13,145 bases of DNA from Elusimicrobiota bacterium. Lineage in GTDB: Bacteria; Elusimicrobiota; Elusimicrobia; UBA1565. Of this stretch, positions 1-13,100 are shown one piece after another. Under the pieces are notes generated by a model. It was not told where the DNA came from, ran no database searches, and saw only the letters and a list, made by a program, of their open reading frames with translations. The translations under genes were made by a program, and so were the position numbers. Every line of letters begins with the position of its first letter. Position 1 is the stretch's first letter. Location of the stretch: contig JBDREN010000086.1 in the NCBI GenBank assembly GCA_043819795.1, positions 1 through 13,145 on the forward strand. Direction: 5' to 3'.

Positions 1-3648
<3,648 letters not shown>

Positions 3649-10092: not shown

Positions 10093-10208
10093 TCCGGTCA
10101 CGCGGGGATATCCCGATCATCCCCGGTCTCGAAGACTTCCTCTTGTCCCTGGCGCGGTTTTCGCGTTCGATGTCCTTTCCCTAGGGGAAAATCAACCGCA
10201 AACGAGGA

Positions 10209-10244
10209 CAAAAGAAGACGCCAGCCCTCCCGGGCCAGCGTCTT
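10209..10244 (-). terminator. Intrinsic terminator downstream of the tRNA-Tyr locus
   Basis: The minus strand reads AAGACGCTGGCCC-GGGA-GGGCTGGCGTCTT followed by CTTTTG: a 13-bp stem with 2 G-U pairs and a GNRA loop. Confidence 0.8.
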
Positions 10245-10251
10245 TCCCAAA

Positions 10252-10305
10252 TGGTGGTGGGGATAGCACCGATCCAATAAGTCAGAGGACCGGCACTATC
10301 CCCAC
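10252..10305 (-). other. Duplicated tRNA-Tyr 3' end carrying CCA, forming a 19-bp hairpin (att-like remnant or tRNA-like minihelix)
   Basis: The minus strand reads GTGGGGATAGTGCCGGTCC-TCTGACTTATT-GGATCGGTGCTATCCCCAC-CACCA. CTATCCCCACCA at 10255-10266 is identical to 10322-10333. Confidence 0.75.
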
Positions 10306-10308
10306 GGT

Positions 10309-11493
10309 TCAGGAGAACGTATGGTGGGGATAGGATTCGAACCTATGTAGGGCGTAGCCCGCTGGTTTTACAGACCAGTGCATTTGACCGCTCTGCCACC
10401 CCACCTTTCTTTGTTTTTCAGCGAAATTCGGGATTTCGAAAGGTGGTCGATTTCGCTGTGTAGCACTAGTGTAGCACTTTTCCGACTCCAGGAGCTGGAT
10501 CGCGGCCAGCTTATGGCTCGGAGACAGGTGCGAGTACCGCTCCGTCATCCGGGTCGTGGAGTGCCCCAGCAACTCTGCTACGGTTTTCAAATCGGCACCC
10601 TTCATGATCAACTCGCTGGCGAAGGTGTGCCGGAGATCGTGAAACCGGAAGTCTCTGATTCCGGCCCGCTCAACGGCCGCCTCGAACTGGCTCCTGAGGC
10701 CGCCGAACCTGGAGAGCTTCCTGCCTTGCGCGTCGCAGAAGATGTGCTCTCCCTTCCGGACCATCCCGTTGAGCGTATCCTGCACGTCAGGATGAATCGG
10801 GATGTGGCGTATTCTACCAGATTTCGTCTTGCGGAGCGTAATCTGGTGGGCCACCGCGTCGATGTCCGTCCACTTGAGGTCCTGGATTTCGCCTTTCCTC
10901 ATGCCGGTCTTAAGCGCGAAGAGGACCACGCGCCGGAGCTCCGGCCCGCACACGGCGAGGAGCCGCTTCTTCTCGTCCGGGCTCAGGTAGCGGGTCCGGC
11001 CGCGGTCCTTCTCGCTGAAGAACCGGACGCGGCGCACGGGGTTGTCGAGCACGAGGCCCCATTCCATGCCCTTGTTGAAGGCGGTCTTGAGCACCGCGAG
11101 CTCGCGGTTGACGCGCGCGCCGGTGATCGGCCGTCCTTTCCTAAGGGTCTGCCTCCGGTGGGCCTTGTACTGCTCGATCCGGTGCGGGTTCAGCTCCGAG
11201 ACCAGGCAGTCCCCGAAGAAGTCAAGCATGGTCCGAATCGCGATTGCGTCGCTGTCGAAGGAGGACTTGTTGGTCCTGGCGTAGTCCTTCATGTAGGTCT
11301 CGAGGAGGTCCTTCAAAGGAAGCCGCGTCTGGCGGTCCAGGGCCTTGCCCGAGGCGTAATCGCTTCTGCGCTTGAAGTAGACTTCCTTGGCCTGCCTGCG
11401 GTCGGTGACGCCGGTCGATTCCTGGAATCGCTTACCGTTAAGCTTGAACGAGTACCACCAGAAGGGGCTGTTGGGGCGCTTATAAAGTCCCAT
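10309..11493 (-). CDS. int: Tyrosine recombinase / phage-type integrase whose C-terminal tail overlaps tRNA-Tyr
   Basis: N-terminal arm-binding-like segment (GLYKRPNSPFWWYSFKLNGKRFQESTG). Complete catalytic set: R (TGMRKGEI), K (KTKSG), HxxR (FHDLRHTFAS), H (LGHS), Y (RYSH). GGAGG RBS before ATG 11493. The first in-frame stop is TGA at 10309-10311. Confidence 0.96.
   Translation of the reverse strand: MGLYKRPNSPFWWYSFKLNGKRFQESTGVTDRRQAKEVYFKRRSDYASGKALDRQTRLPLKDLLETYMKDYARTNKSSFDSDAIAIRTMLDFFGDCLVSELNPHRIEQYKAHRRQTLRKGRPITGARVNRELAVLKTAFNKGMEWGLVLDNPVRRVRFFSEKDRGRTRYLSPDEKKRLLAVCGPELRRVVLFALKTGMRKGEIQDLKWTDIDAVAHQITLRKTKSGRIRHIPIHPDVQDTLNGMVRKGEHIFCDAQGRKLSRFGGLRSQFEAAVERAGIRDFRFHDLRHTFASELIMKGADLKTVAELLGHSTTRMTERYSHLSPSHKLAAIQLLESEKCYTSATQRNRPPFEIPNFAEKQRKVGWQSGQMHWSVKPAGYALHRFESYPHHTFS
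10322..10405 (-). tRNA. tRNA-Tyr(GTA), CCA not encoded
   Basis: GGTGGGGTGGCAGAGCGGTCAAATGCACTGGTCTGTAAAACCAGCGGGCTACGCCCTACATAGGTTCGAATCCTATCCCCACCA. Acceptor stem GGTGGGG/CCCCACC with discriminator A. Anticodon arm CTGGT-CTGTAAA-ACCAG. Long variable arm GGGC-TAC-GCCC. T arm ATAGG-TTCGAAT-CCTAT. Confidence 0.97.
10458..10478. repeat. Tandem 10-bp direct repeat, candidate integrase arm-type binding sites
   Basis: GTGTAGCACT at 10458-10467 and 10469-10478, with 11-bp periodicity, about 50 bp from the tRNA 5' end. Confidence 0.65.
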
Positions 11494-11511: not shown

Positions 11512-11871
11512 TCATTTGCTTTGTTGCCGCCGCAGCGGCGTAATGGCCCGGCGCTTCATCCACTTGTCGATCTCCTGGACATCGAAGCGGACCAGGTTCT
11601 TTCCGCCCTCCCCGGCTTCTTCGATGCTCAGCGGGATGAAGGGTATGCTCCGGCGCTGGACCAGCTTGTAGAGCGACCACCGGGACACGCCCAGGTAGCC
11701 GGCCAGCTCCTGGATCGTGAGGTAGCGCTTGTCCGGAGAGGGCGGCGGGGGCTTCTCCCGCCCCGATACCCATTGCACGGTATCCCATTCGTCCTGGATC
11801 TCCTGCGGGACGATGAACCCGGCGAACTTGCTCTGAATCCTAGAATCGTGGTACGGGATTTCTGGCGTCAT
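11512..11871 (-). CDS. Excisionase-like helix-turn-helix protein (HTH_17/MerR-like), probable recombination directionality factor
   Basis: RYLTIQELAGYLGVSRWSLYKLVQRRSIP...VRFDVQEIDKWM. ATG 11871 is preceded by AAGGAGG and is preferred over 11892. It lies directly upstream of int. Confidence 0.88.
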   Translation of the reverse strand: MTPEIPYHDSRIQSKFAGFIVPQEIQDEWDTVQWVSGREKPPPPSPDKRYLTIQELAGYLGVSRWSLYKLVQRRSIPFIPLSIEEAGEGGKNLVRFDVQEIDKWMKRRAITPLRRQQSK

Positions 11872-13045
11872 AGGCCTCCTTCCAATCTTCAACGACCAAT
11901 CTGGTGGCGACCGTGAGAATGACCCATATGGGCATGAGCGCGAGGTTCTTCACCACGTAGTCGGTCATTACCTTGGCGCGGGCGACGGCCCGGGTCCCGT
12001 TCTTGGACTGGCCCCGGACCGACCAGTCCGTATAGCCCCATGTGGCCAGCATGATGAGGCCGCCCGCGGCCATGGCGAAGAGGGTCTCGGCCGCGCGGCT
12101 CACACCCCTGCGCCACCAAAAGCGGCGGCGGAAGAGCCCCCGCCTGCGCGGGCGGCGGTAGGGATCCCAGAGGGGCGTTCTACGAGGCTCTTGCCGGACC
12201 GGCTCGGGCGCGGTCGGCTCCACCGGAGCGGGTGGGGGGTGCTCCGGTGGAGCGGGCTCCGGCGTGGGCTCCGGAGGGGGGAGCGGCTTGGCCCTGGGCG
12301 GCCACTCCAGGGAGTCCGGGGCGATGCTGTACGCGGTCCCTTGGGCGTCCTCCAGGGTCCAGGCGTGGCCGCTTTGCAGGGCGTCCTCGAGCCCGATGAA
12401 GAAATGCCGGGGCCCATCCCCGGGACCAGAGTCCGCCTCGCGGGCCAGGGCGTTCCGGATGCCCCGGCTGCCGCAGACCCACCAGACATGCATAAGGTCG
12501 TCGCGCTCCCGGAGTTTCCGGAAGGATTCCTCGAGCTTGTCGCTGTTCTTGAGGGTGAGCTCGACCTCCAGCCCGACCTGCGCGGACACGCCGCGGAGGT
12601 TGTTGGTGAACCGGAATTCGGCGTCGCAGACCTTCGTGCCGTACCAGCCGCGCCGTTCCCAGAGGGGCTTTTCGGTCACGTACCAGCTGACCATGGGATG
12701 CTCCTCCAGGACCAGCCCGAGCCGCGCGCAGGCCAGCCGATGCTGGAAGATGTGCGGCCGGAAATCCTCCGGCTTGAAGCGGCCTGTGACCGGGAGCCGG
12801 CGCAGCCGGTCCAGGGTCCAGTAGCCCTCCGGGCTCAGGCAGAAGGCCTTGCCGGGACTGGTCCCGGTGCGGAAGTCGAGCGTCAGGCCGCGGGCCTTGA
12901 GCCGGTTGAGCACGCGGTAGGAGTGGGTCTGGTTGGTGAAGATGAGCTGCACTTCCGTGATGGTCAGGTAGTTGTACTCGGCCAGTTTGCTCATCAGCCG
13001 GAGCATCTTGTCGGTCAGTTTCTTCGGTCTCTTCTGTCTTCCCAA
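11840..13045 (-). CDS. Replication-relaxation-family-like protein (winged helix plus nuclease-like domain) with a Pro-rich linker and hydrophobic C-terminal tail
   Basis: LTDKMLRLMSKLAEYNYLTITEV...YRVLNRLKARGL...FCLSPEG; HIFQHRLACARL; CDAEF...VGLEVELTLKNSDKL; VWWVC. The likely start is TTG 13045, 5 nt after GGAGG; the GTG at 13051 lies inside the RBS. Confidence 0.75.
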   Translation of the reverse strand: MGRQKRPKKLTDKMLRLMSKLAEYNYLTITEVQLIFTNQTHSYRVLNRLKARGLTLDFRTGTSPGKAFCLSPEGYWTLDRLRRLPVTGRFKPEDFRPHIFQHRLACARLGLVLEEHPMVSWYVTEKPLWERRGWYGTKVCDAEFRFTNNLRGVSAQVGLEVELTLKNSDKLEESFRKLRERDDLMHVWWVCGSRGIRNALAREADSGPGDGPRHFFIGLEDALQSGHAWTLEDAQGTAYSIAPDSLEWPPRAKPLPPPEPTPEPAPPEHPPPAPVEPTAPEPVRQEPRRTPLWDPYRRPRRRGLFRRRFWWRRGVSRAAETLFAMAAGGLIMLATWGYTDWSVRGQSKNGTRAVARAKVMTDYVVKNLALMPIWVILTVATRLVVEDWKEAYDARNPVPRF

Positions 13046-13100
13046 TGTCACCTCCTTGTCTTATTTTCACCCCATCCATCAGCCCCGCTTCGATCCCTTG

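Follow-up and report, generated by a model that had tools for sequence, protein, structure and literature searches.

A 67-bp hairpin insert behind a tRNA-Tyr gene belongs to a small family of tRNA-linked units and may have moved as single-stranded DNA

What is the CCA-ended hairpin that repeats the neighbouring tRNA-Tyr gene's 3' end in this Elusimicrobiota bacterium, and how did it come to be there? The window, i.e. the whole stretch of 13,145 nucleotides analysed, is contig C86 of genome G000 (4.99 Mb, 90% complete), and its tRNA-Tyr(GTA) gene (10405-10322, minus strand), which lacks an encoded CCA, is the sole full tRNA-Tyr in the assembly. A 67-bp unit begins within this gene with a 12-bp repeat, X1 (10322-10333, minus; tRNA nt 62-73, 12/12 duplicated), that completes the tRNA. 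It continues on the same strand with a 16-nt spacer containing a small hairpin and the int stop codon (10306-10321 and 10309-10311 respectively), an anti-target arm, X', that is a 10-nt inverted copy of tRNA nt 62-71 (10296-10305), and a conserved 30-nt core (10267-10296) with a GTGCC foot, inner TCC/GGA pairs and an 11-nt loop ending YYAY-N. The right end of the core reads GGTG and the junction always lies before C. Behind it stands X2, the second copy of the 12-bp repeat with a CCA (10252-10266, minus), followed by an intrinsic-terminator-like hairpin (10215-10244, minus).

The stem of the hairpin comprises 19 bp on the minus strand (10305-10287 / 10275-10257; 16 Watson-Crick and 3 G-U pairs) with an 11-nt loop (10286-10276) and a CACCA tail (10256-10252), a C-C mismatch replacing the G1-C72 pair of the tRNA. 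The minus-strand RNA fold is predicted at -36.4 kcal/mol (z -7.13; equalled by 0/200 shuffles) against -25.2 kcal/mol for the plus strand, where the inner stem is broken, and the direct repeats (10333-10322 and 10266-10255) are spaced 67 bp apart. All the features listed in the original prediction, from the stem, loop and tail that pair fully only on the minus strand to the absent CCA, the C-C mismatch and the repeats, are present. The tRNA was the sole match in an Rfam search of the window.

Related genomes reveal what the locus looks like without the unit. CCA follows the discriminator immediately in the tRNA-Tyr genes of 23/29 relatives, in many of them with a terminator-like hairpin directly after it, and the core was absent from all 29 tRNA-Tyr loci compared (two of these having short flanks). 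By this comparison, 10266-10252 is the native tRNA end and 10215-10244 the native downstream end of the locus. At the tRNA-Tyr end, 67 bp were added with a 12-bp duplication, the original CCA end being displaced downstream, which agrees with the mini-insertion and with the order of tRNA-CCA and terminator at empty sites that had been proposed. Losing the CCA from the gene probably does no harm, as it is encoded in just 13 of the 40 tRNA genes of G000.

The proposal that the insert acts as a structural switch on the tRNA holds only for a predicted transient state. In equilibrium folding, the 5' arm invades the tRNA 3' strand with P 0.58-0.99 for RNA ends between 10296 and 10266, and P falls to 0 once the transcript reaches 10260; invasion of the acceptor is predicted at transcript lengths of 110-140 nt, and cloverleaf and hairpin coexist from 146 nt. 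The folding thus predicts a transient invasion of partial transcripts, resolved once the second copy is transcribed, and no lasting switch. A role in the 3'-end fate of the int mRNA was not borne out, its sole pointer being the int stop codon inside the insert.

This int gene (10309-11493, minus) encodes the tyrosine integrase (PF00589) of a separate upstream element; this frame runs on across all of the tRNA-Tyr gene and ends within the insert. The element also encodes an excisionase-like HTH_17 protein (11512-11892, minus) and has two direct 10-mers near the int 3' end (10458-10478, minus) that may be its arm-type sites. Since 5'-half fragments of tRNA-Tyr (nt 1-42) lie upstream of the complete gene in relatives, the integrase most likely uses the anticodon loop and replaces the tRNA 5' half, a different site from that of the insert. 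The integrase on contig C133 likewise runs into tRNA-Thr, and many elements in G000 seem to replace tRNA 5' halves, a mode that is rare in Islander (159/3919). Further along the window, a 403-aa ORF (11840-13051, minus) without a Pfam match at E<=1 presumably resembles a replication-relaxation protein (by eye, from its motif), and an open-ended protein at 1-3648 (plus), with many 43-aa Cys/Asp repeats of 129-bp period, is one that we take to be thrombospondin type-3-like.

Could the insert itself be an integrase product, i.e. the scar of a J-site island at tRNA-Tyr that lost nearly everything it carried, so that attL and attR now lie 67 bp from each other and the hairpin consists of fused arm sequences? 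A tRNA followed by its displaced fragment is an island signature according to the available portion of PMC4383910, G000 is rich in integrases and tRNA fragments, and on contig C164 two related cores bracket 5.1 kb of genes. We nevertheless consider such a scar highly unlikely. The window integrase lies upstream, and for such elements the relatives show 5'-half fragments; no integrase was found inside any of the units described below; independent units cluster at 50-70 bp; and the junctions fall at many tRNA positions and at one hairpin position, unlike an integrase site. Short duplications of a tRNA end need not be island scars in every case.

The core occurs six times in G000, at the window tRNA-Tyr, behind a tRNA-Tyr 3' fragment (C151), behind tRNA-Glu (C133) and three times with tRNA-Gly fragments on C164, and there are half-sites on C5, C188 and C164. 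The bases that precede the core in the full copies are, at least partly, complementary to a copy of a tRNA piece. Two covariance models and a pattern, used on 101 genomes of the order, added members in G003, G011, G412 and G008, so that 23 units at ten tRNA types were compiled (G008, 8; G000, 6; G412, 5; G003, 3; G011, 1), 12 with the narrow core and 11 with shorter or different cores but the same foot. The core pattern gave 10 matches in 5/101 genomes of the order, as opposed to none in the reversed control, and nine of the ten abut a tRNA gene or fragment. A looser layout search of 163,660 bp of tRNA flanks (100 flanks of G003, G008 and G412, among the matches listed, 150 of 179, plus 33 earlier loci, with G011 left out) returned 14 matches against one in the control; 12 of these 14 start inside the tRNA, mostly at the acceptor base (sense nt 65|66, antisense nt 7|8). 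An independent count of duplications with an arm found 14 in 290 tRNA sides versus 1-3 in shuffles. For G000 alone this count (2/80) and a generic 7-mer layout scan (6 vs 2-10) were at noise level. Inspection of the covariance-model matches led us to drop 8/11 loci in one search and 11/12 in another, and family members were missed because these searches scored only 37-55 candidates per genome. Five of the dropped matches (L217, L218 and L223-L225, in G027 and G436) are dispersed inverted-repeat elements of ~90 bp that end in GGGACWGTCCC, like the TIRs of a TIRYT gene in G027 (L367), and were retained as a lead only.

No member was found outside the order in the phylum, class, GTDB contig and metagenome searches. 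Among 401 genomes sampled across the phylum, exact core matches occurred only in G000, with 13 two-mismatch matches elsewhere versus 15 in the control; the 4/151 genomes that matched in the class sample all belong to the same order, and a third core pattern added no further members. The three core matches in GTDB genome contigs were all in coding genes, exact core patterns gave 0, 0, 2 (both chance) and 0 matches in viral contigs, plasmids yielded no core match and phages three weak coding ones. Metagenomes gave 0 matches for one pattern and at least 120 stretches for another, none of the 80 inspected having the layout; ten metagenome stretches near low-threshold tRNA calls looked like coding false positives. 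The family is not described in the results of a literature search that hardly covered tyrT and did not cover RtT work, nor in the accessible parts of PMC4383910, PMC3184786, PMC3119063, bioRxiv 2024.07.17.603846 and bioRxiv 2026.09.22.753630. Within the searches made, what is new is that the family is minimal and its foot defined, that insertion is mirrored at the two acceptor-stem ends, that there is evidence of a tandem or circular form for this unit and that a candidate enzyme can be named for testing.

The units follow one order, namely X1, a spacer, the inverted arm X' (often with one bulged T), a 5-bp foot, a variable hairpin, the other side of the foot and an X2 starting with C, over 49-103 bp and with duplications of 6-19 bp. 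The foot (n = 23) reads G-C at the first pair (22 units), T·G at the second (21; T-A in 2), C-G (10), G·T (9), A-T (3) or G-C (1) at the third, C-G at the fourth (22) and C-G (15), T-A (7) or T·G (1) at the fifth, a pattern that was partly imposed by the searches, the choice between T·G and T-A being free. The junction was GGYR|C in 12/12 narrow cores. Covariation was also seen in the alignment, the score for six cores being reached by 0/500 shuffles and that for ten by 13/500 (modest). The window insert is thus no one-off scar; it has relatives with a conserved, covarying stem. An inverted copy of the tRNA end is usual, not universal, and the arm pairs with its own target better than with others' (mean 5.3 versus 2.4 bp; permutation p 2e-5, n = 11 units that are non-independent). 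CCA is absent after most units, and a CCA tail is not a family feature. Direct-inverted-direct layouts with unrelated cores were also seen at tRNA-Tyr and tRNA-Asp ends (L021 in G021, L323 in G412, L286 in G008 and L002 in G003).

Fifteen units lie in sense orientation at tRNA 3' ends or in the T-arm and six are antisense at tRNA 5' ends, two units at tRNA-Ser(CGA) of G003 taking the first bases of the tRNA as right arm. Within the tRNA the junctions vary (48, 62, 66 and 67; antisense 7, 9 and 13) at one fixed hairpin position, and the commonest ones are mirror images across the G7-C66 pair. Three arrays of tandem units were found, of 2 x 51 bp in G003, 2 x 58 bp in G412 and three of ~50 bp before a tRNA-Ser 5' fragment in G008. 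The family is thereby characterized by a fixed hairpin junction (GGTG|C, for the window unit within the T-stem/acceptor part of the tRNA), a duplicated tRNA end with the gene restored, a target-matched arm, both orientations and tandem arrays. We give somewhat better than even chances to the reading that the unit is a small, non-autonomous, protein-less insert that would travel as a hairpin of single-stranded DNA and restore its tRNA, one of a family that is linked to tRNAs and has the build of the RtT repeats of E. coli. Recognition as single-stranded DNA is supported by the wobble, which pairs only on the unit's own strand, including in 4/6 antisense units. C-GNA-G triloops, which are far more stable as DNA than as RNA (as stated in the available part of PMC13037366), close 6/23 cores; the window's own core has no GNA loop, and, as DNA, the strand of the unit itself was the more stable one in no more than 16/22 units. 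The GC skew of the contigs gave no clear sign of a replication-strand bias of the units.

The same hairpins could instead be RNA modules like RtT, transcribed together with the tRNA and then excised as a tRNA-like hairpin of ~55 nt with a CCA end, or acting as a trailer that steers tRNA end maturation; they would spread among tRNA genes by duplication and be retained by selection on RNA structure. This is unlikely in our judgement, and the evidence falls on both sides. E. coli rttR is annotated as a small RNA, reflecting what we take to be a real processed RNA in RtT, and its end coincides exactly with the displaced CCA, where it closes a stem equivalent to ours. The window hairpin has a very stable RNA fold, its U·G/G·U pairs are typical of RNA stems, acceptor invasion is predicted during transcription, and two of the six antisense units retain Watson-Crick foot pairing in the transcript. 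The other four antisense units lose their foot pair there, the wobble becoming an A·C mismatch, and that six of 23 units are antisense to their tRNA at all counts against an RNA module, as do the lack of a following CCA in most units, the copies behind dead tRNA fragments (C151, C164) and the lack of the unit at tRNA-Tyr in 29/29 relatives, where it must therefore be dispensable. Nor did the RtT model (RF00391) match: it found nothing at E<=10 in 10150-10330 and nothing at or above its gathering score of 45 bits in any of five genomes (best 24.1), as opposed to four matches in the E. coli control.

A reading without any dedicated enzyme, in which the units were made at tRNA genes prone to hairpins, by replication slippage and template switching at quasi-palindromes, and homologous exchange copied an existing core from locus to locus, fits some of the irregular cases. 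Duplications extend beyond the tRNA into as much as ~10 nt of flank, and those of L264, L276 and C133 measure 18-19 bp. The Ser-TGA unit of G008 has no arm against the tRNA and one that matches the flank of the right copy (score 7 vs 3), an arm in G003 matches the native leader, and there are chimeric half-sites at C5, C188 and C164:9660-9750. This origin seems to us very improbable, given that the same core and junction base recur in tRNAs, genera and families that are unrelated, the tRNA side showing no homology. It is also at odds with the C151 unit, whose left copy and arm are of the G000 type and whose displaced end matches the tRNA-Tyr of other genera. Because it is the left copy, rather than the displaced end, that the arm fits (7.5 vs 4), this unit appears from its sequence to have arrived ready-made or to have recombined (a chimera).

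Further signs of movement came from outside the assembly, in which the window unit is single. A 97-nt contig of a sediment metagenome (run X1) spans 10255-10333, apart from two differences, and runs back into the start of its own unit, and a second contig of the run enters it from the tRNA side. We take the length of 97 nt, i.e. 67 + 30, to be that of a closed loop for assembly words of 31 letters. The contig represents either a tandem array or a circle of the window unit, a depth of 2-2.6 not separating the two. Several other arrangements were observed in G000. At C164:1545-6767, the two units bracketing 5.1 kb are of Gly type and 89% alike over 70 bp, and the interval holds WD40-like, lipoprotein and lgt-like genes (by eye), possibly a captured cargo. 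At C164:9651-9760, an arm and core start stand before a right arm in inverted orientation and a TAAC...GTTA hairpin resembling attC, possibly a strand-switch or IntI product, and at C5:1990-2075 a different double hairpin of ~55 nt splits a tRNA-Gly 3' fragment in the T-loop.

For a hairpin insert of the preferred, single-stranded DNA kind, we propose the following steps. The unit would be handled as folded single-stranded DNA, and an enzyme acting in trans would recognize the hairpin foot with its T·G wobble and cut there. The strand might then be transferred into a tRNA gene beside the acceptor stem, on either strand, and repair or fold-back synthesis would make the duplication and could restore the match of the inverted arm. 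Of the two orientations, only the one directed away from the body of the tRNA would survive, because it alone rebuilds the tRNA, and arrays could arise from repeated rounds or from a small circle. The CCA-ended minihelix may be a by-product, and the displaced copy may absorb the antisense arm in the pre-tRNA, which is perhaps why the insert is tolerated.

As to the enzyme, an HUH Y1 transposase of the TIRYT type is a tentative guess, one that we would sooner doubt than accept even if the unit does move as single-stranded DNA. In the accessible portions of PMC3333891, PMC8266576 and PMC6006769, HUH Y1 enzymes bind such hairpins, need mispairs, have the cut site picked by a 5'-foot guide and can make tandem copies. 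TIRYT-like Y1 genes are encoded in G000 and in all five relatives tested. Nineteen TIRYT-like genes (TIRYT as in the available part of PMC3733652) yielded a repeat of at least 10 bp in 15 cases, and 6/15 of these TIR starts resemble the foot in containing GTVCY, versus a background of 5%, a post hoc comparison of related sequences. No core was found beside the Y1 and reverse transcriptase genes of G000 or beside 16 Y1 loci of the five relatives, and TIRYT Y1 transposases are a lead only. Upstream of a Y1 gene of G008 (L374, C29), a ~75-bp stretch in the TIRYT left end has a 13-nt match, in reverse, to the right arm of the core. Three reverse transcriptases of group II intron type are encoded on C179, C6 and C95 of G000, none with a core nearby.

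The most far-reaching form of this scheme is a retargetable, DNA-guided mini-element, in which a TIRYT-type Y1 would bind the foot, the arm of 5-10 nt would guide it to the tRNA acceptor strand on either DNA strand and a single-stranded circle of ~60 nt would move. We judge it quite improbable as a whole. If it were true, guided transposition would also account for how the E. coli RtT repeats arose, and a substrate of TIRYT enzymes would be known for the first time; an arm that acted as guide would extend the DNA-guided targeting of the IS608 type from 4 nt to 5-10 nt.

Several known systems were compared with the family. REP/BIME with RAYT and TIR/TIRYT are alike, in the accessible portions of PMC3333891, PMC8266576, PMC3733652 and PMC6006769, in their short imperfect single-stranded hairpin, strand-specific mispair, possible 5'-foot guide and tandem amplification. 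Our units differ from REP and TIR in their low copy number, confinement to tRNA ends and target duplication of 6-19 bp; the arm, of 4-10 nt, changes with the target, and the junction lies before C, not at C|T. An identity with REP/RAYT was rejected, there being no GTAG or CGTC tetranucleotide at the 5' foot, where the bases vary with the target. tRNA-targeting islands (Islander; from the part of PMC4383910 available) share the restored tRNA and the directly oriented displaced fragment, at either 3' or 5' ends. The unit was not assigned to them, since it spans 67 bp versus >2 kb (2-200 kb), holds no ORF, has int outside its repeats and has a junction whose position is set by the hairpin and not by a sub-site of the tRNA. 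Integron cassettes and attC resemble it in carrying a target-like arm inside, taking the partner arm from the target and acting as a folded single strand. The attC identity was discarded, as the junction lacks RYYYAAC...GTTRRRY (AAC/GTT) boxes, there is no pattern of extrahelical bases, the unit does not lie beside intI and the true attC sites of G000 look different; integron integrases with canonical attC cassettes were seen at C133:1-3285, C91 and C123. For Ssn/GIY-YIG hairpin cassettes (as far as covered by the available part of PMC11893778), G000 gave two GIY-YIG matches, and none of the 30 loci inspected out of 209 matches had the motif at a gene end or tRNA, so that this identity was rejected as well. 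A dif/Xer site was rejected on its loop length, which varies from 10 to 15 nt in our units, and a tRNA primer-binding site on the arm, which has no complement of CCA. A CRISPR repeat-spacer and a group II intron end were likewise rejected as identities of the unit.

The closest likeness is to the repeats of E. coli tyrT/tyrV (rttR/RtT, RF00391), which also lie behind tRNA-Tyr and have a tRNA-end copy, a 10-nt inverted copy, a folded core with C-GNA-G and tandem copies. The original prediction had called the window element loosely reminiscent of them; the resemblance is closer than that, as the 178-bp repeats of tyrT in E. coli K-12 contain the last 19 tRNA bases, three C-GNA-G hairpins and the same kind of 10-nt inverted copy of the tRNA end. 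Both RtT and our units end in a tRNA-end copy that pairs with the internal inverted copy. RtT differs in length (178 versus 49-103 bp), in lacking the GT.CY/RG.RC foot in E. coli and in a duplication that starts in the T-loop, and unlike RtT our family also occurs antisense at tRNA 5' ends. Judged by sequence comparison, the window element is laid out like RtT and is not a member of it. E. coli genomes hold 1-14 places matching RtT (median 3), and to our knowledge the origin and purpose of such tRNA-linked repeats have never been explained. The present units are a minimal, easily synthesized version of them: the core takes 30 nt, the junction is fixed and the insertions at 5' ends mirror those at 3' ends, so that a DNA element can be told from an RNA module by direct test.
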